In this document: one piece after another, positions 2,662-35,486 of the stretch | How positions within the stretch are numbered: the stretch's first letter is position 1 | Layout of the letters: each line of letters opens with the position of its first letter | IMG/VR virus record: IMGVR_UViG_3300025133_000025 | DNA from: a virus | Lineage: Duplodnaviria > Heunggongvirae > Uroviricota > Caudoviricetes | Length of the DNA stretch: 43,306 bases | Direction: 5' to 3' (one strand) | Notes under the pieces: generated by a model | What the model was told of the DNA's origin: nothing | Seen by the model: only the letters and a program-made list of their open reading frames with translations | Databases searched by the model: none | Program-made: the position numbers and the translations under genes

Positions 2662-5600
2662 TATGTCACCGTGAAGAATGTTTCAATTACTGCTTCAATG
2701 ACGTTCGATGAAGCCAAGTAATCTTCACCAGCATCTAGTTCAGCAAGATAAGTATCATTAAATGTTGTACTTCCATCAGGTCTAAAAATCGCTGGTCGGC
2801 GCTGCACTTTCTGCCTGTTGAGAGGGTGGTTCTCAATAGTGAATGCAATTTCACTAAAGTTTGCTAGCGCTGGAATCAATTGTGAAACAAGCCTTGAAAA
2901 TGTTGCATCAATAACACGATATGCATTCATGAAATATTCGAATGAAATTGCCTGACGAAGACGAGCTCCTCCTACACGCTTGAAATAAATTGCGCGATAC
3001 TCTTCTAAATCGCTGTAGTCAGCCCACCATTTCATAACAGGCCTGCCGATTGTTCTATTGAAATCTTCAAAATCTACAAACAGATTCAGCAGCTCTTCAG
3101 AGAGTTCATCAACCATATTCATTTCAACAGTTACAAGCGGAACATCACCAAACTGCTCTTCATCATCAAGCTCTGTTAGATCACCAATATCATTACGAAT
3201 TCGTGTTTTGAATTGTGTATCAAGCAGACCCACACTTGTTCCGTAGGGAAAATATTCTATTTCACGATATTGTGCAATAGATGATTTGCCTGGAATCTGC
3301 CAAGTGTGCTGACTGCCAGTTACAATATCAAAGATTGTACTTCCTGTGTCATAAAGTTGTGCATGTAAACTAAGCAATTCATAACTTGATGTTACGTTTG
3401 TTGAACCAAAACTTTTATAGTTTGATGCGTGTGTAAATGACTCTTGTAGAGAAACAGATTTTTCCCAAACACGAACCTCATGAAAATAACCCTCTGAAGA
3501 TGTTAGCACAATCTTGGCAGGATTAACGACAGGACCTAGGATTAGCTCATCAGTGTCTCTCATAAAAAATGAGTCCGTGGCCGAGTATGTTCCTGTTACA
3601 TGCGCTGTTCTTTCAACCTCACCTCGACGAACAGTGTGTACTGTCAGATAATCTTCACTTCCTGTCAAGAACTCTGTTCCACCTCGACCATGTGTAATAT
3701 GCACATAGGTATCATCACCAAATAAACGAATTGTTGGTGTCGAAAATGATTCAGATCCAGATGTAAAGTGCAATTTTCCATAACTTGATGTCAGTGAACT
3801 TGACATTCTTGTTGTATAGATTCTTGGTAGCAGAGGATCTGGATTTCCTGAGGACTTCAATTCAACATTCCAAATTGAAGCAGTTACAATTGACGCAGTA
3901 GACGGGAAGTGCCCAATAACTTCAAGCGCAAAACCATCAGTGGCATTTACTTGTGGAAAGAATTCGCTGGCACCCGTATTGTCAAAGTGCGCCTGCCACT
4001 CTTGTGAAGAAGAAATATATGGGATTAACTTTGTGTCACGCATACGCAACGAGCCAGATCCGATCTGGGTTGGATTAACAACATATTCCTTAATGCGAAC
4101 AAGAGACTCATCAACACCAAAAACGTTTAAAACTTTACGCAGTGCTTCTCTTGTTCCTTTGCTTTTGTGAATGCCCGGTTGCGCGTTGTAGAGGCGCCTA
4201 AGAAATTCCTCACGAACTTTAACAGGCGTTAACGGCGCTTCAATACACGATGTTGCATCAATTCCGTAGAGTTGCTCTTCTGCAGAGAGTGTTAAGAACT
4301 GAAAGGCAGTATCGATACCATTTACGCGAAGCATTTCTGACAGCATCTCTGCTGGAATACGATTAAATCCCGTCAGTCTATCATTTTCCAATGCAGTCAT
4401 GCCATCAATGGCTGCTTTTGCTTCATCAAACATTTGGCCAATTGTGAATAAGAAATCACGCATTGCGTCTTGTGCAAAATCTTGATCATCTTGTAGATGA
4501 AGGACATGGTCTGTTATGCCTGACCCTGACGCATTATTTCCATAATCGCTAACAACGCTGCGCACAATATCATCAGTTACTAGATGCGCTGGCAACAATC
4601 GTGTAATGAGATTTGGATTTCGTGAATCGTAAATCGTTCCTGACGTAATTAAGGCGTCAGCAAAATCAACAACCTGTCTATTCTGCACAAACATAACAGG
4701 CGTTGGCACTTCATAATTTAGTAACGATGAGCTAGCGGCAACAAGTTGTAGGCCATCAAAAACAGTATCTGTAGTAGTTACAACTTTTGCATTAGACGTG
4801 AAGACGTATTCGCCTGTTCGATTATTTGCTGCATATGAAGTAAAAGCTCCGTGGTTTTCATTTCCTGAATAATCAGCAACAATTTGGTCAAATCCGGAAG
4901 TTCCAGTAATCCCCTCATTAAAGCGGTAATAAAGTGTTAATCCAGGTTGCGCAAAGATGTTTACATTATATGAGCATGACATCTCAGACAGGGGGCGCGC
5001 ATAATTAAAAATTCGAATTTCATCAAGTGATCCAGAAAACCCGAAATTTGAAAAACCAGCCGGAAATGAGCCTGCAAGACTTCCAGAGGCAATCTCAAGT
5101 GCTCCGCCAATATTATTGATATCTCCAAAGAAATCTGGCTCAACAGTCTTCGTTGCTTTTTTAACACCATCTACATAAATCGCTATTTCATTTGCGTTTC
5201 TGGAGAAAACAGCGTGTGTATAAAAAGAATCAATTGTGGGTGTATGCGTCACACTCTTTAAGAAAGATCCTGACACAACAGTGAATTCAAGCTCACCACT
5301 TGTTGTAGTAAGTGACCACCCCATATTATCTGACTGCGTTAGGTGCGAAATAATCTTTTTCTGCGCAGCAGATTGTATTCTTGATACTGCAACACCAACC
5401 GTTAAAGAACCTGTCCCGATGTAACCTGCAGTGCCAGACGCTTCATAGTTATTTACAGTTACTTGATCATTTTCATGAAAGTGCGCAATTCCTGCAAACT
5501 TTGGATATTTTTGATAAATATGCTCTTGATATTGTGATGAACTTGCGTGAAATTTCTCAATATCGACTGCAGAACCAAGAACAGGATATCGATTTAGTAT

Positions 5601-5777
5601 TCGTGCAATTCCAACATCTACCTGATGTGCAGCTGAACCAAAGAACACAAATTGACTATAGGACTCAAAATCAACATCGAAACTTGCTGTTAGCGCGCGA
5701 GCGTCGCGAATTGCCAATGATGTCACATTATGAACAGAACCTGTTACAGTGCTAAGCGTTCCATATATTGTTGACAT
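2661..5777 (-). CDS. Large tail fibre / baseplate-attached protein with a LamG (concanavalin-A-like lectin) domain
   Basis: 1038-aa ORF. The motif GSLDEIRIFNYARPLSEM matches the LamG/Laminin_G_3 signature (xLDEVRIYNRALS). Long beta-rich Ser/Thr/Gly composition is typical of fibres. Confidence 0.6.
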   Translation of the reverse strand: MSTIYGTLSTVTGSVHNVTSLAIRDARALTASFDVDFESYSQFVFFGSAAHQVDVGIARILNRYPVLGSAVDIEKFHASSSQYQEHIYQKYPKFAGIAHFHENDQVTVNNYEASGTAGYIGTGSLTVGVAVSRIQSAAQKKIISHLTQSDNMGWSLTTTSGELEFTVVSGSFLKSVTHTPTIDSFYTHAVFSRNANEIAIYVDGVKKATKTVEPDFFGDINNIGGALEIASGSLAGSFPAGFSNFGFSGSLDEIRIFNYARPLSEMSCSYNVNIFAQPGLTLYYRFNEGITGTSGFDQIVADYSGNENHGAFTSYAANNRTGEYVFTSNAKVVTTTDTVFDGLQLVAASSSLLNYEVPTPVMFVQNRQVVDFADALITSGTIYDSRNPNLITRLLPAHLVTDDIVRSVVSDYGNNASGSGITDHVLHLQDDQDFAQDAMRDFLFTIGQMFDEAKAAIDGMTALENDRLTGFNRIPAEMLSEMLRVNGIDTAFQFLTLSAEEQLYGIDATSCIEAPLTPVKVREEFLRRLYNAQPGIHKSKGTREALRKVLNVFGVDESLVRIKEYVVNPTQIGSGSLRMRDTKLIPYISSSQEWQAHFDNTGASEFFPQVNATDGFALEVIGHFPSTASIVTASIWNVELKSSGNPDPLLPRIYTTRMSSSLTSSYGKLHFTSGSESFSTPTIRLFGDDTYVHITHGRGGTEFLTGSEDYLTVHTVRRGEVERTAHVTGTYSATDSFFMRDTDELILGPVVNPAKIVLTSSEGYFHEVRVWEKSVSLQESFTHASNYKSFGSTNVTSSYELLSLHAQLYDTGSTIFDIVTGSQHTWQIPGKSSIAQYREIEYFPYGTSVGLLDTQFKTRIRNDIGDLTELDDEEQFGDVPLVTVEMNMVDELSEELLNLFVDFEDFNRTIGRPVMKWWADYSDLEEYRAIYFKRVGGARLRQAISFEYFMNAYRVIDATFSRLVSQLIPALANFSEIAFTIENHPLNRQKVQRRPAIFRPDGSTTFNDTYLAELDAGEDYLASSNVIEAVIETFFTVT

Positions 5778-7252
5778 TAGTCACTTACCTTAAAAACAAA
5801 GCTGTCTTTAAGAATACGCCTGTAGCCATTCTCATCAAGCAAAAATTCAATCCTATATGCATTTCCAGGAATAAGCATTGACATATGCAATTCTAAGAAG
5901 TTGGTTGCACCATCATAGCTCAACTTTGTATACTCTTCACTTGAGCCTGTGTAAAATGGAACGATGATTGTGCCTGAATCGGCCTCCTTGATTCTCCAAT
6001 AAGCTTTTTCAAGATAGTTATTCTTTATGCCAGCTGACCCAGTTGATTGTACAGAGGGTTTCCAGTTATCTTGTCGCGCAATAATGTTAATACGGGCATA
6101 CTCAGCTGCACCATACCACTTTCTCATATTTGTTGCTTCAAGTGCATACTCAACTGGATTAATGGTTGCAGTAAAATTCTCAATAGAGCCAGTAAATGCA
6201 GATCCTGTAAAAAACAATGTCGCAGATGGGTCTGGAGCAAGTAAGCCGTGACTACCAGAGAACCAAACTTCATGCAGAATGTTTCCTGTGGTTGCACTTC
6301 TAATAGCTGACGATGTCATTGTTGTTTGCCAATTATAAACACCTGGGCGCACATAAGAACCTGTGAAAAACGCCACGTGCTGTCCATTAAGTGCGTCCTT
6401 TAGCTGGACTTTTACATCTTTCAGCACAGAGCCTGTTGCTAGATTAGTTAATTGCCCTCTTACAATGTTATAACCATAAACTGTTGATGATTCATCAAAC
6501 AAAAAATCGTCACGTTGATCACGAATATTAGTTTCAAAACGCGCCTCAACATAAGGGCGTCGATCAAGGAAATGTGTAGTACGACTATGAAACTTCTTCA
6601 TGTAAAGTGAAGTTGAATTTGCAGCCTCTTGTGACGCTGTAATCTTTAGAAGTAATCCGTTATTTGGAATATTTCCAGACAGCCAATTGTTCACAATTTC
6701 TGTCACATCAATTTCTAGATTTTCATTTCCAATATCAAAAAACTGCGATCCAGATCCATAGTAGTCTGGATCGCCAGGGTTGCTAGTGTAGTAATCACCT
6801 CCATCCGCAACCCAATCAAGTGTTGTTGAGGCTGTTCCCCAATTAGCAACACCCGGATCACCAAGGGTGTCGTTATCAAAACCTGCACCCTCAACCCAAA
6901 TTTTACTTGAACCAGCTGATGAAGAAACTGGAAAAACCTTTAATGTGAACTGCTCTGCTTGTTGGTTGCCATGCGGAGCGTCAGTCATCTTAAGAAAATA
7001 TTTTACACCAATGCCTGTGGAAGGCAGTAGTTCGTCATCAATTAAATCCTGAAATGGTTGATGATTTAGATACACAAGCGCCCTCGCCCGCTCTTCACCT
7101 TGTGAACCTGTTCTGTAGAAGACATCAATTATCTCAGATCTGCCCAAGTTAGAGCCTGTTGCACGTGTAGATCTACCTTGCCTATACGGCTTTGGATCCA
7201 TAAATGCATCAGTAATAGACGTGTCGCGATCAAAAAATTTTCTAAACAGCAT
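5777..7252 (-). CDS. Baseplate / tail-fibre-associated protein (gpI-like position)
   Basis: 491-aa ORF directly downstream of the Baseplate-J-like gene, the position held by gpI in P2-like baseplate operons; no motif recognised. Confidence 0.45.
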   Translation of the reverse strand: MLFRKFFDRDTSITDAFMDPKPYRQGRSTRATGSNLGRSEIIDVFYRTGSQGEERARALVYLNHQPFQDLIDDELLPSTGIGVKYFLKMTDAPHGNQQAEQFTLKVFPVSSSAGSSKIWVEGAGFDNDTLGDPGVANWGTASTTLDWVADGGDYYTSNPGDPDYYGSGSQFFDIGNENLEIDVTEIVNNWLSGNIPNNGLLLKITASQEAANSTSLYMKKFHSRTTHFLDRRPYVEARFETNIRDQRDDFLFDESSTVYGYNIVRGQLTNLATGSVLKDVKVQLKDALNGQHVAFFTGSYVRPGVYNWQTTMTSSAIRSATTGNILHEVWFSGSHGLLAPDPSATLFFTGSAFTGSIENFTATINPVEYALEATNMRKWYGAAEYARINIIARQDNWKPSVQSTGSAGIKNNYLEKAYWRIKEADSGTIIVPFYTGSSEEYTKLSYDGATNFLELHMSMLIPGNAYRIEFLLDENGYRRILKDSFVFKVSD

Positions 7253-9060
7253 TATCGCACGACTCCTCTAACATCTGTTTCATCAAACTTAATCTCAAGT
7301 AATGAATTAGCAGGTACATGAATTATACCACCATGCGTAACACTTTGAATTGACAATGCATCACGTGAATATTCACGACCCTCAATTGTACCTGCCAGAT
7401 TGCGAAGATTAACAGATGCGACTGCAAGCGTGCCGGGCATTCCTGCAAGGATTCCTATAATATTTGATAGAATAACATTCTGCCCCATTTGCCATCTTGA
7501 AGTGTCAAAATAATCAAGCACGCGTTGAATTGCTGACGCCAGGAGCGCATTTTTATTAACGCCGGATCGTGCTACAAGCTCAAAATCAACACCAACGTTA
7601 ACGATTTTGCCATCAAGAATATCGATTCCTGACGAAAGCATCTTATATTTGCTAATGTACTTTTTCAGATTTTCTTTCAATGCTGGTGTTGGTACTACCA
7701 GCGTTCCTGCTGCATCTTTTGAGATTGCCCACAAAGAAACTGAATTTCTATTGCCTTCATTTTGCGCTGCCCGAGCACGAAAAACAGAACCAAGTGAGGC
7801 AGGCATTGACATTGCTCTTACAACAAAATCTTCAGAAGTAACAACGCGATCTTGTGCTGCTTGATGCGCAGGAATCATACGTGCAAGTTCATTAATTGTT
7901 AAGCCGTCATCGCCTCCAATGATTGGCTTTGCATTTTGGACAGAAACAGAATTTTTTACAGTTGTAATAATTGTTGCATCGTAAAAAGGATCAGGCATCT
8001 CAATATCAAGTGAAACTGGACTCTGTAATTGGCCAGCTCCAATATTTGAATTAAACCCTCCACCAACTCTATATTGCACCGTCAATGTTGTATTTGCTGG
8101 ACCAACTCCAAAACTTGTTGTTTGAAGAAAGTTTTGTGGATCTATAGAAACGCTTGGAAATTGTGTCCTACCCGCTAGTGGTAATGCAAGCTCATTGACA
8201 TCTGGAATAATTACTTGATCAAACCTTGAGCCATCAGCACCACCAAATGTTAGCTTAGTTAGCTTAGTTAATGGATCATACTCCTTCATGAATCTACGGG
8301 GTGCGCGCACTAATTTAAGCACACTTGGCACTGTTGCAGAATCTGCCCCTACATTTTGTTCAATAACAAAAACCATATCCTGCGAAAGATTTTCAACTTC
8401 ATAAAAGCGGTTGCCGGCAGAATCAAAAACATCAATTATATCAGTTACATTCAAGTCTTGCAGTGTTATTTGATGAAATTTCTTGAAAGAACCAATAATA
8501 TGCTGCTTTTTAACAGTTTTTCCTGCTACACAAGGTACATTTTGCTTAAGAACGATCAAATCTGTGAATGATCCAACAGCAGCTGGTAAAATCTTTCTGT
8601 TAACTGAATTGGCAAAATCGCAGTTTTCAACTGTTTCTACGCTTGATCCTGCCCCAGAAAACCGAGATCCTGCCCTCAGATTCATTAAAAGGTTAGGAAC
8701 GGGCACAATTTCACCATCTATGACTGTGGATGGTACAATAATGGCAATATCAATGAAGCCAGACGCAGCTGCACCTGGTCGAATAGAATAGCCTTGTCGG
8801 CGACCCATATTAATCACGTTTTTAGCTTCGCGAGCAGCAAGAGTGCGTTCACGTACCTGATGATCGATATAGAAATTTAACACATCGGTTGCTGTCGCCA
8901 TTAATTCAATCAGCATCATACCTGACGAGGCTTCATTGAAGTCTTGGTACGTCTCGGGGAAATTCTGCCGAATATACTCAATCAGGCGGGCGCGTGTTTG
9001 ATCAAAATCACGATCTAAATATTTTACGCCTACAGGAAGATTGTCATCATTTACAGTCAT
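7252..9060 (-). CDS. Baseplate wedge protein, Baseplate_J / gp6-like
   Basis: 602-aa ORF immediately downstream of the gp25/GpW-like gene (W-J order as in P2/T4). The N-terminal region (DFDQTRARLIEYIRQNFPETY...ELMATATDVLNFYID) resembles Baseplate_J N-termini. Confidence 0.5.
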   Translation of the reverse strand: MTVNDDNLPVGVKYLDRDFDQTRARLIEYIRQNFPETYQDFNEASSGMMLIELMATATDVLNFYIDHQVRERTLAAREAKNVINMGRRQGYSIRPGAAASGFIDIAIIVPSTVIDGEIVPVPNLLMNLRAGSRFSGAGSSVETVENCDFANSVNRKILPAAVGSFTDLIVLKQNVPCVAGKTVKKQHIIGSFKKFHQITLQDLNVTDIIDVFDSAGNRFYEVENLSQDMVFVIEQNVGADSATVPSVLKLVRAPRRFMKEYDPLTKLTKLTFGGADGSRFDQVIIPDVNELALPLAGRTQFPSVSIDPQNFLQTTSFGVGPANTTLTVQYRVGGGFNSNIGAGQLQSPVSLDIEMPDPFYDATIITTVKNSVSVQNAKPIIGGDDGLTINELARMIPAHQAAQDRVVTSEDFVVRAMSMPASLGSVFRARAAQNEGNRNSVSLWAISKDAAGTLVVPTPALKENLKKYISKYKMLSSGIDILDGKIVNVGVDFELVARSGVNKNALLASAIQRVLDYFDTSRWQMGQNVILSNIIGILAGMPGTLAVASVNLRNLAGTIEGREYSRDALSIQSVTHGGIIHVPANSLLEIKFDETDVRGVVR

Positions 9061-9458
9061 AGCTTCACTGTTACCTCATCGAAGATGTTATTGTTGAATG
9101 TATATGTAAAGCGCACAAAAACTTTCATCTCATTAGCGAGAAGATCAGGCTCTTCATCTTTTGTTGTGATTCTTAAGTCAACAATGGAAACGAATGACAT
9201 ATATTTCCCAACAGATGATTTGATGCGATCTGCAACATTCAACTTCATATCCTGCGTCATTTGCTCAAATAAGAGGCCGCGGATGCCGGCGCCGAAATCA
9301 GTGAACATCAATCGTTCACCTGGGTTTGTTAGAAGTAAGTTGATGATATTATCACGAACTGCAGAGCGTGAATCACGATTCATCGCAAAATATGAACCAT
9401 CACCTGTACGTTGGAATGGAAGCTTGAAATTTAACCCTGGAATGTTTCGCCTTGCCAT
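9057..9458 (-). CDS. Baseplate wedge protein gp25 / GpW family
   Basis: 133 aa. The motif VRDNIINLLLTNPGERLMFTDFGAGIRGLLFEQ matches the GPW_gp25 signature (xNIxxILxTxPGERxMxPxFGxxLxxLLFEP). Confidence 0.75.
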   Translation of the reverse strand: MARRNIPGLNFKLPFQRTGDGSYFAMNRDSRSAVRDNIINLLLTNPGERLMFTDFGAGIRGLLFEQMTQDMKLNVADRIKSSVGKYMSFVSIVDLRITTKDEEPDLLANEMKVFVRFTYTFNNNIFDEVTVKL

Positions 9459-9466
9459 GTTAGTAA

Positions 9467-10429
9467 CTAGTCAACGAATACATTTTCTGACGTGAGATTT
9501 TCAGCTGCAGTTTCTGCATTTACAATATCTGCGCTTGCAACAGGCGTTGCAATTCCAACAGCAGCACCGGTCACTGTTGTTACTTTTTGAGCGTCTAAAC
9601 GCTGGACGGCATTTATCAAGCTGTCAATGGTTGCCTTCAATTGGTTACCTAGAACAACTGGCTCTTGAGCATTCTCTGGATCAAAACCAACAGAAACTGA
9701 GTTTCCGCCAATATTAACATCACCTGCTGCAATTGCGTTTAATTGACCGCCGACCTCTGCAGTCATATCGCCATCAACTGCTAGTGCTATATCACCTTTG
9801 CATGTGATATTGATTTTTGCACCTTCTGTCTTACCAACAACAAGATTGACCTCATTGGCTACCAGAATGTTGAGTGTTCCACCATTTTCGCTATTACCAA
9901 CAACAACTGTGTAGTCACCCTCAACGACATCTTGCCTAATGCCAGCCGTGAGTGTAAGGACTTGATCCTCACCATCATCTGATATTTCTATTACAGATGT
10001 TTTCCCATCACGCTGTGCAACTCCGAGGCGCGCGTACGTCTTTCCAGCAACTTCATTCAAGTCTAGATATGCTCGTAGTTTACCATCTTTTACAAGTGTA
10101 ATTGCACCTTCTGGCTTTGCACGCAATGTAATATACTCAGTTGAAACAATAGCACCGGGCCCCTCGAGCTTATCTGTATCTGAGAAGAGATATTCCTTCA
10201 CAAGCCTATCTGTTATTAGCTTCTTCTGCTCCTCAGTTAGAAATTTCAAATCATCCTGAATTGTGATTTCAAGTTCATTAGCAATATTTCTAATAAAATC
10301 AGCAGGCTGCGCTGCTCTAAGTAATGCTATAAAGCTAGAGGCTGTTAAGTGCTCTGCAACATTTCTTGGATTGAGCGACAACTCAATCCCTTCTTCACTA
10401 ACAAGCAGGCCCTCTGCAAGAACAACCAT
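9467..10429 (-). CDS. Baseplate central spike / hub-like protein with beta-helix repeats
   Basis: 320 aa with short repetitive beta-strand segments (VVVGNSENGGTLNILVANEVNLVVGKTEGAKINITCKGDIALAVDGDMTAEVGG), typical of gpV/gp5-type spike beta-helices; it sits upstream of gp25-like, as in P2 (V-W-J). Confidence 0.45.
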   Translation of the reverse strand: MVVLAEGLLVSEEGIELSLNPRNVAEHLTASSFIALLRAAQPADFIRNIANELEITIQDDLKFLTEEQKKLITDRLVKEYLFSDTDKLEGPGAIVSTEYITLRAKPEGAITLVKDGKLRAYLDLNEVAGKTYARLGVAQRDGKTSVIEISDDGEDQVLTLTAGIRQDVVEGDYTVVVGNSENGGTLNILVANEVNLVVGKTEGAKINITCKGDIALAVDGDMTAEVGGQLNAIAAGDVNIGGNSVSVGFDPENAQEPVVLGNQLKATIDSLINAVQRLDAQKVTTVTGAAVGIATPVASADIVNAETAAENLTSENVFVD

Positions 10430-14380: not shown

Positions 14381-15293
14381 TTGATGTCCTTGGTAAGGCA
14401 ACTGCCTTTGTTGCAGCAGCCTCAGCAATTCGAGCGGCCCATTTAAAATCATCCTGAAATGTCAAAGCATACGCGAACACCGCTGTCACTACATCACCTG
14501 CTCCGACAACACTTCTTACTGGTCCAGCTGTTGTTTTTAGGCGCTCAGTTTCATTACCCAACTCAAATACTGCTAGGCCATCAGCTCCCATTGAAACAAT
14601 TGCAACAGGGATGTCTTGTTTATTATCTAGAGCAGTCCACTCTGCAAAATTTACTGTAATATACACATCAAAATCACGTGATAGAAAACCATCATAATCT
14701 TGAAAATTAGCTTTCTTGGTATCAATTACAATTTTTGCTGTTTCTGGAAGGCGGGTGGCAATCTCATCAATGAGCTCACGTGTAACAATTCCCTTTGCAT
14801 AATCAGACACGATTACTACATCTGCTATATCAAGAATATTACATTTCTGCGCATTCATAGATTTCACTGACTGCAGAACAAGATTACTATCTTGCGGTGA
14901 GAATGACTTACCGGTGTCAACACGAAGAAGTGTTACGTCACCATTCATATAACGTGTCTTCAACAGCATCTTGTCGATTTCGCCGTCTATAAACATAACT
15001 GTTGGAGCTAGATATCGCAAGTGACTATTTACAGGGCCAATGAAACTTGTTGAGCAATGAAGCCTGCTAATTATTTTTGCAACGTTTGCAGCTCCGCCAG
15101 CCTGCTCTACAGTGTCATTGACATCAAGCAGTAGGCTCGGGGCTTCAGGGTTCACCCTGCTTACGTCACCGTAAATGTAGCGATCAACCATTGGATCACC
15201 GATAACAACAACATTAGGCATTAATACGCCCGCGAATTGCTGTTGAACTAAATCCCTCGACTGTTGGAAAAATTGCGATTGACGCATATTCAT
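14370..15293 (-). CDS. hldE: D-beta-D-heptose 7-phosphate kinase-like (HldE/RfaE domain I, PfkB family)
   Basis: VVVIGDPMVDRYIYGDVSRVNPEAPSLLLDV matches the RfaE domain-I N-terminus (VLVVGDVMLDRYWYG...EAPVPV); GAGD near the C-terminus is PfkB motif 2. The start was chosen at the Met about 20 aa before the motif; the longest ORF runs to 15356. Confidence 0.65.
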   Translation of the reverse strand: MNMRQSQFFQQSRDLVQQQFAGVLMPNVVVIGDPMVDRYIYGDVSRVNPEAPSLLLDVNDTVEQAGGAANVAKIISRLHCSTSFIGPVNSHLRYLAPTVMFIDGEIDKMLLKTRYMNGDVTLLRVDTGKSFSPQDSNLVLQSVKSMNAQKCNILDIADVVIVSDYAKGIVTRELIDEIATRLPETAKIVIDTKKANFQDYDGFLSRDFDVYITVNFAEWTALDNKQDIPVAIVSMGADGLAVFELGNETERLKTTAGPVRSVVGAGDVVTAVFAYALTFQDDFKWAARIAEAAATKAVALPRTSNDV

Positions 15294-15726
15294 GTCCAAC
15301 AACATCTTCTGGTTTATAATCACCACCTTTAACGATGATATCAGGTTCAACAGCAAGAATAAGATTTAATGGTGTGTCTTCACTGAAGGGAATCGTTACA
15401 AGATATTTTACTGGGTTGGTCGCAATGTTTTCAATCATGAAACATCTTTCATCAATTGGCACAAAGGGCCGATCGCTACCTTTGTAGCGGCGCACACTGC
15501 TATCACTGTTTACACCAACAACTAATGCGCCATATGGGCCTGCAAGCGCCGCGGCATATTGAATAATCTTTACATGGCCAGGATGTAGAATATCAAAGCA
15601 CCCATTTGTAAATACAACTCGTGATGGTAGAGGAATTCTGCGAAGTTGTACAATCTTTTGCTCCAGTGAATATCCTGTTCTTGGCTTAATAGCTGTAGCA
15701 TAACTTTTCTTTACTCTACGATCCAT
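15214..15726 (-). CDS. Heptose 1-phosphate adenylyltransferase-like (RfaE domain II, cytidylyltransferase fold)
   Basis: VVFTNGCFDILHPGHVKIIQYAA is a near-exact RfaE-II / HIGH-motif nucleotidyltransferase signature. Confidence 0.7.
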   Translation of the reverse strand: MDRRVKKSYATAIKPRTGYSLEQKIVQLRRIPLPSRVVFTNGCFDILHPGHVKIIQYAAALAGPYGALVVGVNSDSSVRRYKGSDRPFVPIDERCFMIENIATNPVKYLVTIPFSEDTPLNLILAVEPDIIVKGGDYKPEDVVGHEYASIAIFPTVEGFSSTAIRGRINA

Positions 15727-16325
15727 GCGATTTGGCCCCCCTTTTCATGGGCAGAGGCAAACAGTGGTTCGATACCAATCGCGTTGAAGTACTCCTGCAC
15801 CAGCTCAGGCTTGCTTGCTCCCTCGCGGTGGTAGTCGTCAACCATGACGATGACAGCACGAGGGAAGCGGCCAGTTACGACGGGCCAGATGGCTGTCAGC
15901 TCCTTGAGGTGGTGAATCGCAGCGGCTTGGCCCTCCAGGGGGTTGTAATCGTAGGAATCGAGGTATACGAGGTCAGGAAGTGTGCCCTGGGCCGCGATTC
16001 TGTGCAGTTCTGCCACGGAATCCGCAGTAATTGCGGTTACGTATTTGGAATCGCACACCTTTCGGGCAAGCTCAGTAGCTGCCGGATCGATGTCAATTGT
16101 GATCACCTGGCCGCCCGTTTGGGCCACGAACCACTCCCAAACACGTGTAGACTGCCCGTCCCACGTCCAATTATCATACTGGCGCACGGTTCCTGTCTCG
16201 ATGATGATATGACCAGTATCTCGCTCTTCTAACATAGCAGCAATGGCCTTACGAAACGTAGCAAATCTACGGCCTAAGCGCTTATCCATGAAAAACTTGT
16301 CATACTCTGCAAGAATGTTGGTCAT
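15711..16325 (-). CDS. Class I SAM-dependent methyltransferase, TylF/macrocin-O-methyltransferase-like (Methyltransf_24)
   Basis: 204 aa; IIETGTVRG glycine-rich SAM motif I; overall resemblance to TylF-type sugar O-methyltransferases; it lies in the GC-rich island. Confidence 0.45.
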   Translation of the reverse strand: MTNILAEYDKFFMDKRLGRRFATFRKAIAAMLEERDTGHIIIETGTVRQYDNWTWDGQSTRVWEWFVAQTGGQVITIDIDPAATELARKVCDSKYVTAITADSVAELHRIAAQGTLPDLVYLDSYDYNPLEGQAAAIHHLKELTAIWPVVTGRFPRAVIVMVDDYHREGASKPELVQEYFNAIGIEPLFASAHEKGGQIAWIVE

Positions 16326-16372
16326 CCTGCCTCCAATATGTACATTGTATCACGCAGTTAAGGGCGTGGAAC

Positions 16373-16780
16373 CTATTTTGCGGCTGCAGCCAGAGCGCTG
16401 GACGACTGGACCTTGCCACCGCGACCGACATTCCAGAGGAGACCCACATTCATGTCGTTACAGAGGTTGACCTCAGGCGTGTTGTCGCTGACACGATCTC
16501 CACCATTGGCGAAGTAGTCAGGCTTGAACCGCTTGATTGCGTCACAGGCAGTGTCATCAGAGTCGTCAAAGGCAACCACCTGTGAGACGCCGCGGATGGC
16601 CATCAGAATCTCCTTGCGCTCTTCAAACGGCATGAAAACGAAGCCCTTCTTGCGGAGCAGCCATGCGTCTGAATTGAGGGCGACAATCACCGGGCCCATC
16701 CGGTTCGCCTGCAGGATCATCCTCACATGCCCGATGTGAATTGGGTCGAAGCCTCCGGATACCATGATTCGCTCATTCAT
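16373..16780 (-). CDS. Cytidylyltransferase-fold nucleotidyltransferase (second RfaE-II/TagD-like paralog)
   Basis: MVSGGFDPIHIGHVRMIL is a HIGH-motif nucleotidyltransferase signature; 135 aa; GC-rich codon usage unlike the 15214 copy. Confidence 0.6.
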   Translation of the reverse strand: MNERIMVSGGFDPIHIGHVRMILQANRMGPVIVALNSDAWLLRKKGFVFMPFEERKEILMAIRGVSQVVAFDDSDDTACDAIKRFKPDYFANGGDRVSDNTPEVNLCNDMNVGLLWNVGRGGKVQSSSALAAAAK

Positions 16781-16791
16781 CTCAACACTCT

Positions 16792-17043
16792 CTATTCTGG
16801 CACAAAGCAGAAGCGCATGACGGGGACCAATCGATCACCCTTCTCGTACATGTCAAAGTTTGACGTGCTCTTGCAGAAGAGCTTCCCCCGGAGGCCGGCA
16901 AAAGCCCTCTCATCTCCGGGCCAGGCGTACTCTGACGTGAGATGGCGTGATACCTCACCATCAAGAAACTGCGGTGTCTCTACCTCAACCACCTCGATGC
17001 CAGGGTAATCCGCGAAGAACGCTCTAACTTCGTCAACCGTCAT
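16792..17043 (-). CDS. Hypothetical protein
   Basis: 83-aa ORF in the GC-rich island; 4-nt overlap with the upstream gene. Confidence 0.35.
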   Translation of the reverse strand: MTVDEVRAFFADYPGIEVVEVETPQFLDGEVSRHLTSEYAWPGDERAFAGLRGKLFCKSTSNFDMYEKGDRLVPVMRFCFVPE

Positions 17044-17315
17044 GGGCGGTTGGCGTCCATCTCCGCCAGCAGCTCATCAGCGTCGTAGCCACACATTGGG
17101 GCGGCATCACGAATCTGCTTCTCGGTGATCTTTCCATTGACGAATGGCAACACGACTAGGGTCTCGCCATCCTCGGCGAGTAGAAATACTCCCCCGCCTC
17201 GCTCCTTGAAGAGCGCCTGCATGTTGTTCCAGCCTGGGATAGGTTCTTCAGTTGCCAAGGGAAAAAGCCCTTCTGGTGTGCACTGGATGCTGTCCAGTGA
17301 ACTCGTAGATGCCAT
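17040..17315 (-). CDS. Hypothetical protein
   Basis: 91-aa ORF, co-directional and tightly packed. Confidence 0.35.
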   Translation of the reverse strand: MASTSSLDSIQCTPEGLFPLATEEPIPGWNNMQALFKERGGGVFLLAEDGETLVVLPFVNGKITEKQIRDAAPMCGYDADELLAEMDANRP

Positions 17316-18048
17316 AATCGCCCGTAGTGGTGGCTTTTCCGTCCTCTACAGCCCAATCGTAGGTGAATTCCCGGTCTCCGAACCGTGTATTCCACCAATC
17401 GATCTTGGACTGGATACGCTCTGGAGGCCGCATAAATGAGTAGTGGAAGTAGGAAATCGGCAGCTTGAGGTGCTGCGCGTTGCCCGAGAACCATCCAGCG
17501 TACTCCCAATCCATGTAGTTGTCGTTTACGAAGCGGCAACCAGGCGTCATCCTGAAGAAGCGAGGAAATTCATGCCACGTGTACGTGTCGAAGTCGTTCA
17601 CGAACGTCCTGGACTTGACGTGCACGCAGTCGACAGGAGTCACGTCCAGATTCCTTGTCAGGACCTTAGCAGCAATGGCCAGCTGGTCATCCTCCCACAC
17701 CTCATCGCCATCAACGATGAAGAGATAGTCCTCAACGCCATCACCGAAGTTGCAGAGGTTGTCACGAATGTAGTTCAGGCCCGCGTTTCGCTGGTGTGTG
17801 TCAGACTCCTGGTTGGTCTGCAGCATGGCCACCTTGTCGTGTGCCTCAGCAGCATCGACAATGCTCATGATGAGACCAACGGTGCCATCAGTGGAGCGAG
17901 CGGAGCGTCCAATGCGGATGAACTCCTGGTACGCACCTTCCACGATCGTGATGGAGGCGACGTGGGGCGACTCGATCATTGCTGGAAGGGAGGCAGGAAT
18001 GAACTCCGCCTCGTTGTACACTGTCATGAGAACGTGGATTCTAGCCAT
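17248..18048 (-). CDS. Glycosyltransferase family 2
   Basis: N-terminal VLMTVYNEAEFI (GT2 signature) and a DXD motif, FIVDGDEVW. Confidence 0.6.
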   Translation of the reverse strand: MARIHVLMTVYNEAEFIPASLPAMIESPHVASITIVEGAYQEFIRIGRSARSTDGTVGLIMSIVDAAEAHDKVAMLQTNQESDTHQRNAGLNYIRDNLCNFGDGVEDYLFIVDGDEVWEDDQLAIAAKVLTRNLDVTPVDCVHVKSRTFVNDFDTYTWHEFPRFFRMTPGCRFVNDNYMDWEYAGWFSGNAQHLKLPISYFHYSFMRPPERIQSKIDWWNTRFGDREFTYDWAVEDGKATTTGDYGIYEFTGQHPVHTRRAFSLGN

Positions 18049-18280
18049 TTTCTGCGGCCCTTCGCATTGCGTCCCACTCCTGCCCAGCAGTAAACATCAT
18101 TGTCGCCAGCAGAGTGTTTGACAAGCCAAACTCATCAAACTCTTCAGCGACACTCATGACAAATTTGGCCTGCATGTCTGGGGCGTCCATGACCATTGTC
18201 TGGCCGCTCTTGAATTCTGCGTAAACTGCCCTCATGTTGCGGCACAATATTTCGTAAGCGATTACTTCTGCATTATCCAT
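18041..18280 (-). CDS. Hypothetical protein
   Basis: 79-aa ORF overlapping the GT2 start by 8 nt. Confidence 0.35.
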   Translation of the reverse strand: MDNAEVIAYEILCRNMRAVYAEFKSGQTMVMDAPDMQAKFVMSVAEEFDEFGLSNTLLATMMFTAGQEWDAMRRAAENG

Positions 18281-19094
18281 CTTCTACCCAGAGAATGTCA
18301 TTGATCTGGCCAGTCTTGGGGAGCTCAATTGTCTTCAAGACCTCACCATTCATTGTAACCAAATGTAGGTGAGATGGAACCTCACCATGCCTCTCGCCTC
18401 GTGAAGCGCGGAAACTTTCACCAACCCAGAGGTTCCCATTGGGGAGCTGGGCAATGCCACGAATGAAGCCAGACAGCTTGACGAGTGGCTCATGGCCGCC
18501 GACGAGCCAGACCTCGCTGTCGTGAGACGAGCAGTAGGCGATGGTGCCATCGTGGAGGACTTCGATGTCGTGGGTGTGCGTTCCACCCTGGCTGACTGGA
18601 TGCATCTCGCTGATCTGGATGACGTCACCATGCGAGGCTTCGTCAATCCAGCTCCAGGGGATGAGCCCAATCTGACTTGTCTGCCCGCGGTTGTTGAGGC
18701 CGACCATGAGGCCATGCTCAGTCGCCGCCAGGGCGTTGATGTGGTTGATGTCAGCTCGGCGCTGGCCAATGTTGATCCGCCACTCTCTTTCCACTTCCGC
18801 CACTACGATGGAGTTGTCCTTCGTGCTCGTGAGGAACATCTGGTTGGCTTGCCTGAAGGCGATTTGGTGGCAGTCCAGCACATTGGGAATCCGGATGAAC
18901 ACCGCAGGGTCGTCGCTGGAGTAGATCCGCACGCCTGTGGCACCCTCATCACGACCTGTCGCAGCTACAACACCGGAGTCGTCTGTGATCAGACCAAACC
19001 AGTTGCTGCAATTGCTGTCATGGAAATAGAGCTCCGCCCGCGTTCCTTCATCATTTACCTGGAGGACGCCGGCGGTTGTTGCTACATAGAGCAA
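18273..19094 (-). CDS. Hypothetical protein, possibly beta-propeller fold
   Basis: 273 aa with repeated short beta-rich segments and H/D-rich motifs (THTHDIEVLHDGTIAY, NGNLWVGESF); no confident family assignment. Confidence 0.4.
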   Translation of the reverse strand: MLYVATTAGVLQVNDEGTRAELYFHDSNCSNWFGLITDDSGVVAATGRDEGATGVRIYSSDDPAVFIRIPNVLDCHQIAFRQANQMFLTSTKDNSIVVAEVEREWRINIGQRRADINHINALAATEHGLMVGLNNRGQTSQIGLIPWSWIDEASHGDVIQISEMHPVSQGGTHTHDIEVLHDGTIAYCSSHDSEVWLVGGHEPLVKLSGFIRGIAQLPNGNLWVGESFRASRGERHGEVPSHLHLVTMNGEVLKTIELPKTGQINDILWVEDG

Positions 19095-19097
19095 GCT

Positions 19098-19352
19098 CTA
19101 CTCCGCTTCTTTGTCTGCTGTCTTCGGCTTGCGCTTCCTGCTACTCGGCTTGCGCTTTGAAGGTAGGCGCTTCTCAGCAAGTGAAGGTAAGGCTGGTGCT
19201 GGTGCTAAATCTACAGGCTTAGCTTCAACAGGCTCAGGCTTAGCTTCAACAGGCTCAGGCTTGGCTTCAACAGGCTCAGGCGTTGGAAGAACCCAACCTG
19301 CTTGCCTCTCACGCTGTGAACGCTTAATTCGTGCTCGTGAACGTTTACTCAT
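19098..19352 (-). CDS. Small basic protein with (PEPVEAK)x3 repeat
   Basis: 84 aa, Lys/Arg-rich termini; the central triple PEPVEAK is encoded by a 21-bp tandem repeat; SD AGGAGA upstream. Confidence 0.45.
   Translation of the reverse strand: MSKRSRARIKRSQRERQAGWVLPTPEPVEAKPEPVEAKPEPVEAKPVDLAPAPALPSLAEKRLPSKRKPSSRKRKPKTADKEAE
19214..19276. repeat. 21-bp tandem repeat x3 (CAGGCTTAGCTTCAACAGGCT), coding
   Basis: Three consecutive near-identical 21-mers inside ORF 19098-19352; one substitution in copy 3. Confidence 0.8.
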
Positions 19353-19363: not shown

Positions 19364-20269
19364 CTAGTTTTCAAGTGCTGCAACAATTCTGTTGACAACA
19401 CGTTCTGGTGTATAAGTAGCCGCAATCTTGCTTGCAGGCCCAAGATCCCACTCAAAATGACTCTGTATAAGGGCTTCAACTACGCTAACAAAATCTTCGA
19501 TATTATCTGGCTCAAACATTGGAATAGTATCACCCCACACTTCTTGCATCACGGATGTAGCAGCTACAACAGGAACTGCTCCACACAAAACAGCTTCAAT
19601 CGGGATAAGGCCTAGACCCTCGCGCACTGAAGGGGCGAGCACGCACTTGGACGCACAGAGTATGTTCGTCAGTGACATGCTATTCAAAAAGCCTAGGCCG
19701 CGGGCGCAGCCGTACTTTCCTGGCTTAATTGCTGGGCCTGCGACCATATATGTAAAGCTCTTATCATAGATAGTATTCAGCGTTCTTACAGTTTCCTCAG
19801 CTAGTCGAAACCTCTTTGCTTCATCTTCAAGACGACCATAGGAAAAAAAGTCAGCTGTGCCACGTGGAATCTTTCCAGCGATTGCAGAAGCAACCGTGAG
19901 GTTCACGTTGACTGGGTCACCCACTACGTGATATGCTCCTTCATAGCCCAACTCACGAATCTGCTTACCCACAAATTCAGTATTAACAAGAACGCAATCA
20001 GCAAGATCGAGGCGCCACATATGCTCCTTAGCTCTTGCGTCTTCAGCCTCTGCAGCCCAATTCATATCGAGCACTTTAGCTACAACCTTTGTCTTTCCTT
20101 GCAAAATTGCAGTATTGTACTTCACATCAAGCAATGCTTGGGGATCATGGCAGTATACCCAATCGGCTTCACTACTATCTGTAGCAAGCATTCCGCGTTT
20201 ATGCAGCTCAGTAGCCAATGTTGGTACCTGCCCCCAAGGGCCTGCAAACCCTGTTAACTTAATCTTCAT
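19364..20269 (-). CDS. Glycosyltransferase family 4 (GT-B, group 1)
   Basis: LAPSVREGLGLIPIEAVLCGAVPVVAAT matches the GT4 E-x7-E region (PSxxEGFGLxxLEAMAxGxPVIAT). Confidence 0.55.
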   Translation of the reverse strand: MKIKLTGFAGPWGQVPTLATELHKRGMLATDSSEADWVYCHDPQALLDVKYNTAILQGKTKVVAKVLDMNWAAEAEDARAKEHMWRLDLADCVLVNTEFVGKQIRELGYEGAYHVVGDPVNVNLTVASAIAGKIPRGTADFFSYGRLEDEAKRFRLAEETVRTLNTIYDKSFTYMVAGPAIKPGKYGCARGLGFLNSMSLTNILCASKCVLAPSVREGLGLIPIEAVLCGAVPVVAATSVMQEVWGDTIPMFEPDNIEDFVSVVEALIQSHFEWDLGPASKIAATYTPERVVNRIVAALEN

Positions 20270-20838
20270 CTATGATCCTCAAATTTATAACCAAAATATT
20301 CAAAATCTTCTGCAAAGCGGTCATAGATAATTCTTATTAAATCATCACTATCATAGTAGAGGCTATAATGTGGAAGCCTTTTACTCGCGACTTTATTATT
20401 ATTTTTGTGTGGCAACAAAGTTGTTATACCAATCGCTTCACCAGCAATGGCCCAATCAGCTGTAAGGTTTTCAAACCTCCCAATAAAATCTGCTGCTATT
20501 TCTCCACTGTTGTCGCGAAAGAAATCTAGCTGATGTTGCTTCTCTGTTGGATGAACCTGAAAGGTGGTGGTGTGTTTAAATGCATGCACAAAATCATGAA
20601 ATGTATTTTTCTTGTGCAGGCCTTTTCGATTAGCGTACAATGATACAGCGCGATCAAACGGATTCCTAACAAAGCCAAATTTATAAAAGCTTGAAAATTC
20701 TTCAGCAGTTATTTCACTTTGATATTGTTTTAGATCTTTGTGGGGATTTTTCTCATCACCAAGAATTGTGCGTATTGATTGTGATGCTGTTTTTGGAACA
20801 GCTACAAAAATAGTCCTATGCTTATAATTAACGCTCAT
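20266..20838 (-). CDS. Carbohydrate sulfotransferase (Sulfotransfer_2-like)
   Basis: 5'-PSB-like VAVPKTASQSI and 3'-PB-like RNPFDRAVSLY motifs; 190 aa. Confidence 0.55.
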   Translation of the reverse strand: MSVNYKHRTIFVAVPKTASQSIRTILGDEKNPHKDLKQYQSEITAEEFSSFYKFGFVRNPFDRAVSLYANRKGLHKKNTFHDFVHAFKHTTTFQVHPTEKQHQLDFFRDNSGEIAADFIGRFENLTADWAIAGEAIGITTLLPHKNNNKVASKRLPHYSLYYDSDDLIRIIYDRFAEDFEYFGYKFEDHR

Positions 20839-27100: not shown

Positions 27101-27520
27101 TCATCCTTCTTCTGTGGCAAGCTTCGTGTCTCGTAGATCGGCGCTCCACAATTTGGACACTGACTCGCGCGCTTTGCGCCTGCTGTTAGGACTGTTTGGT
27201 TTTCCGGCATTTCCTGCTCTTCTCCATAATTCTTCTCTGTTGTTTGACCAGCGCTTATATTCGCTGTTGACAACATTTGCTTTAAGCCACAGTTCATCTC
27301 CGCGATGTAGTAACTCTTTATTTGGGCTATCATAAACTCCGCAATGCCCAATAACTTCAACCTTATAAGCTTTAAGAGCAAAGTCATACTCAACAAGCTT
27401 CAAAGTTACATAGATTGCAAAACCGCGGTTTGATGACTTTCTAGGTGATTTAATGATGTCGTGATATGAAACGTTATCAATGACAAATGTTTCGCCGTCA
27501 GAAATGTTGTGGCGGTTCAC
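27101..27520 (-). CDS. Hypothetical protein (possible frameshift partner of the 27001-27396 frame)
   Basis: 139 aa; ATGA coupling to the upstream gene at 27517-27520; see the finding on overlapping frames. Confidence 0.45.
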   Translation of the reverse strand: MNRHNISDGETFVIDNVSYHDIIKSPRKSSNRGFAIYVTLKLVEYDFALKAYKVEVIGHCGVYDSPNKELLHRGDELWLKANVVNSEYKRWSNNREELWRRAGNAGKPNSPNSRRKARESVSKLWSADLRDTKLATEEG

Positions 27521-27810
27521 TGACCTGGTAAGATGATGCGACTCCGATTGTCGCGTTGCTCAGCTAGTAAAAGATTATCTTGAACGCGGTCGTAAATAAT
27601 TCCAATAACATTCTCAGCCTTAATGGCTCTTGTGGCTTCTATAACAAATTCAACTGCAGTTTGAAACGCATCCATGAGATTTTCATCTGAGTGCTGTTTT
27701 ACAATTTCGTCAGCAGTATATTCAAATTTTGGATCAATCCGCGCCATCATTGCAGAGAGGATTACATTCTCAAGTTCCATTTCAATCTGTGTCTTTTCAA
27801 CTGTAGCCAT
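27517..27810 (-). CDS. Hypothetical protein
   Basis: 97 aa; first gene leftward of the AT-rich divergent region. Confidence 0.5.
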   Translation of the reverse strand: MATVEKTQIEMELENVILSAMMARIDPKFEYTADEIVKQHSDENLMDAFQTAVEFVIEATRAIKAENVIGIIYDRVQDNLLLAEQRDNRSRIILPGQ

Positions 27811-28076
27811 AAATCGTATGTCCTTCTATAATTCCATTGTATAACAAGCAGCCAGATGTGTAACAAGACTTTATTTTCATCAAAGTTTGTTTCCATATTC
27901 CTGTCAGTAATGCAACAATATAAAAAGTAAAGTAAAGCACTTCAATTATCTGTTGATTCATTATCCTTAAATACTAAATCTGAATTGGTATTACATCTAC
28001 TCACTTTATAGTTCCAACACTTTCAATTTGTATTACAATATCAATATGAATCTATTAACTCATAGGAGTCTTTAAA
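27811..28076. promoter_or_regulatory. AT-rich divergent intergenic control region
   Basis: 266 bp of about 25% GC between the leftward (27810) and rightward (28077) gene blocks, with multiple TATAAT/TACAAT-like hexamers on both strands. Confidence 0.45.
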
Positions 28077-28349
28077 ATGACTGAAGGTCTGATCAACGAA
28101 CTCGCGCAGCATGACGCAGAAAATGAAATCAAAAAGATTATAAATGTCAGTAGAGACGATGTAATCGGCATTGTAACCGAAAGGCTTATGAAGACCTTTG
28201 CAGCACAAGATGTAGTTGACTGCCCAAAATATTTTGTAAATATTACTGAGGATCCGAAGAAGTTTATGCAGTTTATTTTTGCAGGTGACCCTGTAGGATC
28301 TACTGAAAACTTTGGGGAAGTGCGCGACCTTTTGCAGGATGAATCGTAG
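28077..28349 (+). CDS. Hypothetical protein
   Basis: 90 aa; SD TAGGAG upstream. Confidence 0.5.
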   Translation: MTEGLINELAQHDAENEIKKIINVSRDDVIGIVTERLMKTFAAQDVVDCPKYFVNITEDPKKFMQFIFAGDPVGSTENFGEVRDLLQDES

Positions 28350-28545
28350 ACATTTTGTGCATTCTTCGGCGGATTTTGGCCCGAATCCTCTCTTCAGGAC
28401 TCTTTGATTCATCAAATGCCTCTTCGCCGTGAAATTGCAGCCATTCTTCCTCAGTTGAGGGTGGCGAAACATACTGTTTCCCACCATAATCTCGAACTGT
28501 TCCCAGAACTTCATTCATACAATAGGTAGTGAAAAAAGTATGCAA
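28300..28545 (-). CDS. Questionable small ORF (antisense to a plus-strand block)
   Basis: 81-aa ORF starting with TTG; protein-like composition but no RBS; it fills a 190-nt gap between plus-strand genes. Confidence 0.2.
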   Translation of the reverse strand: MHTFFTTYCMNEVLGTVRDYGGKQYVSPPSTEEEWLQFHGEEAFDESKSPEERIRAKIRRRMHKMSTIHPAKGRALPQSFQ

Positions 28546-31144: not shown

Positions 31145-31294
31145 GTCCTGAAACGGAGCAATTGCTGGCCATTTTAAAAGAAATTGCCAGTACGGGTGAT
31201 TTACAAGAAGTTTATGATATTATGCCTGACTGCGGAGCTCCGCTGGACGCGGCGGTATGGAATTGGATTGAGGCAGGTTGCCCAGACGCTGATT
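31141..31294 (+). CDS. Possible small ORF (GTG start)
   Basis: GTGA overlap with the preceding stop; 51 aa ending at the TAG at 31292-31294, convergent with the kinase operon end. Confidence 0.25.
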
Positions 31295-35326: not shown

Positions 35327-35402
35327 AACATATATAGTGTCCACGCTGCCATCTATGCCATGGTGTTTCGTGGCAACGATTTTTTCCAGAAATTTTTGTG
35401 CT

Positions 35403-35486
35403 GGCAGGGCTGTTCTGGTGGTGCAATCCTGGCAGAGCTGTTCTGGTGGTGCAATCCTGGCAGAGCTGTTCTGGTGGTGCAAATTC
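35403..35486. repeat. 28-bp tandem direct repeat x3 (GGCAGAGCTGTTCTGGTGGTGCAATCCT)
   Basis: Three head-to-tail copies; copy 1 has 1 mismatch and copy 3 diverges in its last 5 nt. Confidence 0.85.

Follow-up and report, generated by a model that had tools for sequence, protein, structure and literature searches.

How did a block of genes with the codon usage of a GC-rich genome come to lie within the AT-type glycan locus of a T4-like phage? The block in question, hereafter termed the island, comprises seven minus-strand genes beginning at position 15711 of a 43,306-nucleotide stretch of viral DNA (IMG/VR record IMGVR_UViG_3300025133_000025), which is called the window throughout. An earlier note on this DNA regarded the genes from 15711 to 19352 as a separate horizontal acquisition that had been grafted in frame-precisely. 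Our analyses support a distinct compositional history with sharp edges for this segment, but they do not support the graft. We favour instead, at a probability of roughly 0.62, a reading in which homologous exchange with a GC-richer member of the same phage group replaced a resident glycan-tailoring module and enlarged it.

The compositional contrast is large and well delimited. The GC content is 0.550 for positions 15711-19094 (0.548 for 15711-19352), compared with 0.416 and 0.437 in the 5-kb flanks and with a mean of 0.425 (standard deviation 0.017, maximum 0.478) for 3.4-kb intervals of the phage backbone, which places the island at z = 7.2. Most of the contrast is concentrated at third codon positions. 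GC content at this position (GC3) is 0.59-0.70 in the seven island genes versus 0.26-0.50 in their neighbours, values at first and second positions (GC1 and GC2) differ little, and the compositional difference is synonymous almost throughout. Synonymous codon usage of the island departs from that of the backbone with a summed chi-squared of 508 (41 degrees of freedom, p about 1e-81), and codon choice differs at p < 0.01 for 14 of the 18 amino acids that have more than one codon. When each gene was classified by its codons in a leave-one-out manner, six of the seven island genes proved to be island-type and every flanking gene backbone-type, with one open reading frame (ORF) of 79 amino acids (aa) borderline. 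The composition-normalized tetranucleotide signature of the island correlates with backbone segments at r = 0.47-0.60, versus 0.69-0.83 between backbone segments.

A maximum-likelihood scan of GC3 with two change-points delimits a segment of approximately 3.4 kb, with its left edge at 15714-15789 and its right edge at 19140-19179 (GC3 0.667 within and 0.353 outside; gain in log-likelihood, 160). GC3 is thus roughly doubled over about 1,100 codons. The earlier note had described 15711-19352 as GC-richer than its flanks, and the GC, GC3, codon and tetranucleotide comparisons all bear this out as a significant difference. Its figure of 55-58% GC was slightly high, as per-gene values are 0.50-0.56, and its right limit was set about 200 bases too far. 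The genes and boundaries under discussion are as follows.

15214-15726, minus strand: RfaE-II/HldC-like adenylyltransferase, 170 aa, in the AT-type flank (TIGR02199, E = 1.4e-36; GC3 0.26).
15711-15789, minus strand: left compositional boundary, with the GC3 change-point, a gene overlap at 15711-15726 and a 17-nucleotide run at 15739-15755 that is identical to the relative L003.
15711-16325, minus strand: class I S-adenosylmethionine-dependent methyltransferase, 204 aa (GC3 0.60; island-type codons across the 3ʹ three quarters).
16373-16780, minus strand: second small nucleotidyltransferase, cytidylyltransferase-like, 135 aa (PF01467, E = 4.5e-13; PHROG 7878; GC3 0.70).
16792-17043, minus strand: small ORF, 83 aa (GC3 0.66, island-type codons; predicted by two gene callers).
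17040-17258, minus strand: small ORF, 72 aa, or 91 aa with a start at 17315 (island-type codons).
17248-18048, minus strand: GT2-like glycosyltransferase, 266 aa (PF00535, E = 0.0016, 18.8 bits, under the cut-off of 23.3).
18041-18280, minus strand: small ORF, 79 aa (GC3 0.59; borderline codon type, log-likelihood ratio -0.08 per codon).
18273-19094, minus strand: predicted six-bladed beta-propeller protein, 273 aa, TTG start (AlphaFold2 model and Foldseek).
19098-19352, minus strand: basic (PEPVEAK)x3 protein, 84 aa, backbone-type (GC3 0.39; log-likelihood ratio -0.27 per codon).
19214-19281, unstranded: 21-nucleotide tandem repeat encoding PEPVEAK, three copies at 96-100% identity (direct-repeat family D1).

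The key comparison is with L003, a 7.7-kb contig found by a search with the methyltransferase. This contig is syntenic with the window through the baseplate side, the sigma factor (79% aa identity), small genes, phosphatase, cupin, kinase and RfaE-II, and the backbone codon usage of the two phages correlates at r = 0.95. Its gene order continues as a PEPV-repeat protein, a GT2, a 68-aa methyltransferase N-terminal fragment, the methyltransferase and RfaE-II. Because L003 shares the order of PEPV protein, GT2, methyltransferase and RfaE-II, this arrangement is ancestral. Five of the seven island genes are missing from L003: the propeller and 79-aa ORF, which in the window separate the PEPV protein from GT2, and the nucleotidyltransferase with two small ORFs, which separate GT2 from the methyltransferase.

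The two remaining island genes have orthologues in L003 that are AT-type (methyltransferase, 69% identical, GC3 0.46; GT2, 66% identical, GC3 0.375). When only those residues that are identical between the two phages are considered, GC3 is 0.65 in the window and 0.32 in L003 for GT2, and 0.59 versus 0.42 for the methyltransferase, whereas eight flanking orthologue pairs give 0.24-0.47 versus 0.26-0.40. The proteins are conserved to a similar degree on either side of the boundary, with aa identities to L003 in this comparison of 69-73% for the island orthologues and 44-79% for flanking genes, and with nucleotide identities of about 68-70% in both. The content of residues with GC-rich codons (glycine, alanine, arginine and proline; GARP) and with AT-rich codons (phenylalanine, tyrosine, methionine, isoleucine, asparagine and lysine; FYMINK) is almost unchanged between the island orthologues of the two phages. 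The 68-aa ORF of L003 (positions 1048-1254) is a truncated and diverged methyltransferase N-terminus that is 33% identical to residues 3-63 of the window methyltransferase, and from this resemblance it is probably the scar of an earlier cassette exchange.

The anatomy of the left junction speaks directly to the proposed graft. The earlier note had observed a 16-nucleotide overlap (15711-15726) between the RfaE-II and methyltransferase genes, and an independent gene caller placed the same boundaries. The first five codons of RfaE-II lie in island-type DNA. Homology between the window and L003 is continuous across the methyltransferase stop and the RfaE-II start, where the two genes of L003 meet in a tight TAATG stop/start overlap. 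The ancestral RfaE-II start is ATG in L003 but AAG in the window (15660-15730 compared with L003 1900-1960), and the only start that the window offers is an ATG located 15 codons further upstream, within the 3ʹ end of the methyltransferase gene. The overlap therefore measures 16 nucleotides because the ancestral start codon has been lost and the upstream ATG is used in its place. Relative to L003, the window RfaE-II has a 10-codon insertion and a 15-residue N-terminal extension that begins within the upstream gene. Since L003 has the orthologues in the same place, with a tight overlap and AT-type codons, the left junction is an inherited gene junction. Judging from this alignment, the frame precision that suggested a graft is inherited architecture with a shifted start codon. 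The 17-nucleotide identical run at 15739-15755 could plausibly mark the crossover site.

The right boundary lies inside the 3ʹ end of the PEPVEAK gene, after the three 21-nucleotide repeats, such that only the last 15-27 codons are island-like. The earlier note had counted this gene as an island member, but apart from its 3ʹ end its codons are backbone-type, and it is GC-rich because of its proline, alanine and glutamate content. In L003, a PEPVVVE-repeat protein (positions 3-221) located directly upstream of GT2 is the positional counterpart, although the C-terminal halves of the two proteins, past the repeats, are unrelated. At the same position, both phages thus encode a small protein with proline/glutamate/valine heptad-like repeats.

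Pfam and PHROG searches detected no integrase or homing-endonuclease domain in any island ORF, the window contains no tRNA gene, and a search for flanking direct or inverted repeats gave only short matches at chance level (up to 18-mers). Consensus scans yielded 15 promoter-like sites versus 9.6 expected and 10 terminator-like sites versus 7.0 expected; none of either kind brackets the block, with the proviso that the phage's own promoter types may differ from the consensus. A single copy of the T4 late promoter TATAAATA is present, the number that chance predicts. The island genes overlap or abut their neighbours and are translationally coupled to them, and together with the AT-type neighbours they form one tightly packed same-strand array.

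These observations of composition, synteny and junction anatomy lead us to infer an exchange and the type of donor that took part in it. An ancestor of the phage would already have held the PEPV-repeat gene, GT2, methyltransferase and RfaE-II in this order, beside a heptose-activation set and the late sigma/baseplate module. Recombination would then have swapped the stretch from GT2 to the methyltransferase for its homologous counterpart in a GC-richer phage of the same broad group, with one crossover in the conserved methyltransferase 3ʹ end or RfaE-II start and the other within or just past the PEPV-repeat gene. The incoming version would have brought five extra genes, namely the small nucleotidyltransferase, the six-bladed propeller and the three small ORFs. 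The protein sequences would have been retained throughout, and time spent in a GC-rich genome would be recorded at synonymous sites only.

Phages of suitable composition do exist. Three GC-rich relatives, L006 (IMGVR_UViG_3300018089_000001; 64% GC, 185 kb), L030 (60% GC) and L008 (54% GC), share with the window a syntenic set of cupin, RfaE-II, PfkB kinase, sigma, gp25 and gp6 genes at 33-37% aa identity, and the codon preferences of the island correlate with those of their core genes at r = 0.81-0.85, compared with 0.29 for the backbone of the window phage itself. None of the three carries the island genes. Upstream of RfaE-II (positions 1-10000), L006 has a different glycan gene set in this slot that includes two methyltransferases, a GT9, an epimerase, a cupin, a UDP-glucose dehydrogenase and GT1-like genes. 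When IMG/VR and the JGI metagenomes were scanned with the sigma factor, only relatives at 31-38% were recovered. A further contig, L129, has a homologue of the island nucleotidyltransferase and also shares the PD-(D/E)XK/GT4/GT arrangement of the window, and the content of the locus differs among L003, L006 and L129.

Several points weigh against exchange with a GC-richer phage. L003 is the sole close relative, and it ends at the PEPV gene, such that the comparison covers the left flank only. Searches of 5.8 billion proteins, IMG/VR and GenBank phages yielded no donor and no closer homologues: nothing lies between 69% and 100% identity for the methyltransferase, no nucleotidyltransferase homologue exceeds 69%, and the propeller has just three distant homologues among the 5.8 billion proteins (30-31% identity, none closer than 31%). 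The codon match makes a GC-rich relative a plausible donor without proving it, because nearly any GC-rich genome would correlate. Finally, two patches of intermediate GC3 (0.40-0.53) lie inside the island, at 16170-16394 (the methyltransferase 5ʹ end) and at 18230-18444, and hence the history of the island may involve more than one event.

Among the alternatives, capture of the island as a glycan cassette from a GC-rich bacterial host or another cellular genome fares best, but we consider it unlikely. The genes are of lipopolysaccharide or capsule type, one of the distant propeller homologues resides in a possibly bacterial cluster with sulfatase-domain, GT2 and GT9 genes, and some distant methyltransferase homologues come from metagenome-assembled genomes of Betaproteobacteria, Burkholderiales and Gemmatimonadaceae. 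However, the contig with the propeller cluster has a GC content of only 32%, and the best non-phage matches to the methyltransferase are just 33-44% identical, compared with 69% for the syntenic phage orthologue. For GT2, the matches in viral contigs reach only 38-41%. A single-protein scan of IMG/VR gave one match at 38%, an alignment-based scan gave five viral contigs at 38-41% (all with 30-41% GC), and there was no match in GenBank phages. The single-protein scan of IMG/VR with the 1080-aa glycosyltransferase of the same locus gave no match, nor did a nucleotide search of GenBank phages with the island.

The nucleotidyltransferase is likewise surrounded by phage-like relatives. Thousands of homologues at 62-69% identity occur in AT-type marine phage-like contigs; in three distinct contexts, these are large contigs of about 42% GC in which the neighbouring genes encode Hsp20, PhoH, UvdE, TK, ClpP or GroEL. 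Homologues in cultured cyanomyoviruses are 37-43% identical. Within its family the window protein is an outlier, with 63-69% identity to all members versus a mean of 76% among them, and its GARP content is slightly raised. A bacterial donor would, in addition, need to have carried both of these genes arranged just as they are in the phage. The nearest homologues of the island genes point to phages, their surroundings being phage-like and not bacterial.

It is distinctly unlikely that the GC-rich cassette was gained by the common ancestor of the window phage and L003, and that the L003 lineage subsequently ameliorated it and lost genes whereas the window lineage did not. In favour of this scenario, the methyltransferase and GT2 of L003 have GC3 values (0.46 and 0.375) slightly above those of most of the L003 backbone (0.20-0.39). 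However, the two lineages have had equal time since their split and their backbone codon usage is nearly identical, and thus a GC3 of 0.65 versus 0.32 at conserved residues would require very unequal rates of amelioration.

Also quite improbable is that GC3 rose in place, either through a local bias in mutation or repair, for instance GC-biased gene conversion at a recombination hotspot, or through selection on GC-ending codons for translation. Such a process would account for a shift that is nearly all synonymous and leaves protein composition unchanged; the locus is clearly prone to recombination, given the scar in L003 and the variable content in relatives, and a second region of the same phage has a still higher GC3 (0.82-0.98). 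It would not explain sharp edges, defined to tens of bases, that fall at gene ends, nor would drift explain the absence of five of the seven genes from L003. Membership in a single packed array with AT-type neighbours makes a separate expression class for the island unlikely, and we know of no precedent for a local process in phages that doubles GC3 over 1,100 codons.

Weakest of all, and very unlikely, is an assembly artefact that joined two co-occurring phages of different GC content: although the sequence comes from a metagenome assembly and has its break points within or close to conserved stretches, all ORFs are intact over the joins, the same island sequence with the same neighbours recurs in seven to nine ENA, Logan and JGI contigs, and independent contigs cover each junction. 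The Logan contig L005 is 100% identical across 20.6 kb and covers both junctions, and L133, a 596-bp contig from another ENA sample, covers the left. The right junction is covered by L136 (JGI 3300006789) and L137 (ENA ERZ27249191) at 99.9% identity, each with its own single-nucleotide polymorphisms. Both of these contigs also have a 1-nucleotide deletion (window position 20562, in the sulfotransferase gene at 20266-20838) that shortens the sulfotransferase from 190 to 103 aa. Five polymorphisms of L136 are grouped at 16462-16517, in the nucleotidyltransferase gene and near the end of the L136 contig. On the grounds set out above, neither a bacterial donor nor a chimera nor drift in place was retained as the main explanation.

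The likely role of the island depends on the identity of its products. The methyltransferase has no Pfam match at E <= 0.1, but many of its 261 homologues bear PF13578 (Methyltransf_24), it matches PHROG 24975, and a profile search of the PDB returned only weak matches to family-3 O-methyltransferases and TrmR-like proteins. On the strength of these relatives, it is a predicted enzyme of the Methyltransf_24/family-3 O-methyltransferase kind, and the TylF-like label given to it in the earlier note is not upheld. The same note called the 135-aa nucleotidyltransferase RfaE-II/TagD-like. This protein does share the nucleotidyltransferase fold and the HxGH motif with HldE/RfaE and TagD-type enzymes, but it scores far below the equivalog cut-offs of TIGR02199 (RfaE-II/HldC; 60.0 versus 181.5 bits) and TIGR01518 (TagD; 49.6 versus 165.4 bits). 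Only the superfamily models PF01467 and TIGR00125 pass, and unlike RfaE-II and TagD the protein belongs to a large family of stand-alone marine phage proteins of approximately 135 aa.

The GT2-like protein has an N-terminal YNE motif and a DGDE motif, neither of which varies among three phage homologues, and conservation in phage homologues extends to many further alignment columns. Where two small ORFs had been counted there are three (83, 72/91 and 79 aa), none of which matches a Pfam or PHROG family. The suggestion of a beta-propeller-like protein, by contrast, holds. The AlphaFold2 model of the 273-aa protein has a predicted template modelling (TM) score (pTM) of 0.83, and Foldseek superposes it on solved six-bladed propellers of the LRP6/LDLR YWTD, NHL and SGL groups at TM scores of 0.6-0.7 (E down to 5e-9). 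The protein is thus predicted to fold as a six-bladed beta-propeller. A look-up of the exact sequence of a 99% variant of this propeller (P0001) returned no record.

The window is contained in a 175,726-bp contig of the ENA metagenome assembly ERZ27249139. The phage is, by its gene content, an uncultured T4-like myovirus of approximately 42% GC, an assignment made because it encodes gp25-like and gp6-like baseplate proteins, a small sigma-70 region-2 protein and many genes on the same strand. The closest cultured phage is Microcystis phage Mel-JY01, whose gp6 is just 32% identical. The glycan region of the window phage is bounded by the late sigma/baseplate module and a PD-(D/E)XK nuclease and has the following parts.

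About 13.5-25.3 kb of the window, minus strand: glycan locus, with a capsule-type HAD phosphatase, cupin, rfaE-domain-I kinase, rfaE-domain-II adenylyltransferase and the island.
Glycan locus, continued, minus strand: PEPVEAK protein, GT4, sulfotransferase, 1080-aa GT4-GT9-GT2 fusion and another GT4.

In the flanks, rfaE domains I and II are each matched by a gene of their own. Given this setting, the island probably adds tailoring to the heptose-containing glycan made by the flanking genes, in the form of methylation, an extra sugar transfer and an extra nucleotide-activated precursor, a proposal that is based on family assignments only.

A second and much stronger GC-rich region is found on the plus strand at 35900-40200, where six genes have GC3 values of 0.82-0.98 and GC contents of 0.59-0.70. 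The codon usage of this region correlates with that of L006, L030 and L008 at r = 0.89-0.94. Four paralogues within it (35910-36299, 36557-36967, 37188-37622 and 39795-40190) start with MAK(K)NRWNPSSKVNCNH; these match no Pfam family and have no relatives in GenBank phages, IMG/VR or GTDB genomes. A 291-aa protein of the same region (38716-39591, plus strand) matches the C-terminal domain of ribosomal protein L7/L12 over a short span (PF00542, E = 1.5e-7, residues 142-167). The phage thus has at least two GC-rich segments (GC3 0.67 for the island and 0.82-0.98 for 35.9-40.2 kb), and it is possible, but doubtful, that they reflect gene flow that has occurred repeatedly between T4-like phages with hosts approximately 20 GC points apart. 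If this were true, co-infection of a single cell by phages of very different composition would be needed, host ranges would be much broader than composition suggests, and the glycan module would be a unit that crosses this compositional boundary.

Other features of the window were noted in passing. A GC3-rich patch (0.57-0.73) is present at 19586-19763 within the backbone-type GT4 gene. Small-scale patchiness of this sort, there and at 16170-16394 and 18230-18444, may reflect finer mosaicism. Around 27500-28500, the coding strand and GC skew change sign, with genes turning from minus to plus and cumulative GC skew at its minimum. Three consecutive minus-strand genes at 31293-35806 have weak protein-kinase-like matches. 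The last of this interval, an ORF at 34280-35806 (minus strand, listed with a GTG start that may be wrong), opens with three GRRPCGKI-type repeats, which extend into the GC-rich region.

That phages exchange segments in a mosaic fashion is textbook knowledge, and Hendrix and colleagues, as well as Juhala et al. in 2000, are said to have described mosaicism between relatives together with compositionally atypical morons. The island resembles such cases in being a segment of atypical composition and different history within a conserved gene order. It differs from morons in that two of its genes would take the place of resident orthologues instead of supplying a new function, and perhaps also in having no promoter or terminator of its own, as the consensus scans detected none around it. 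Bacterial genomic islands, which Lawrence and Ochman (1997) reportedly recognized by deviations in GC content and codon usage and by their amelioration, are detected by the same logic, with GC3 as the most sensitive marker. Here, however, there is no tRNA, integrase or flanking direct repeat, and the replicon is a lytic-type phage. Moreover, GC3 is ahead of GC1 and GC2, whereas a GC-rich gene decaying in an AT-rich genome would show the reverse; the pattern suits AT-type proteins that have passed some time in a GC-rich genome.

Closer parallels are the hypervariable regions of marine T4-like phages, including pelagimyophages and cyanomyophages, which are rich in glycosyltransferases and rfaE-type genes (PMC7029224). 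In both cases, a plastic region with glycosyltransferases, rfaE-type genes and sugar dehydrogenases lies beside baseplate and tail genes, and its content varies between otherwise syntenic phages. The present locus differs in its distance from cultured members, in that a piece of it is marked by a doubling of GC3, and in that orthologous replacement accompanies gene gain and loss. The island is most likely ordinary phage mosaicism that happens to be seen unusually clearly; what is distinctive is how large the GC3 contrast is, that a relative carries an orthologous module of AT type, and that the edges could be mapped so finely.

No new mechanism or kind of element is revealed by these findings. 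Rather, exchange with a GC-richer phage would represent a clean and quantifiable case of module exchange in a phage glycan locus, in which the same two genes in the same position show equal protein conservation and a two-fold difference in GC3. On this evidence, composition alone can date such exchanges and delimit them within tens of bases, and the glycan-tailoring cassettes of aquatic T4-like phages would appear to move between lineages of very different genome composition.

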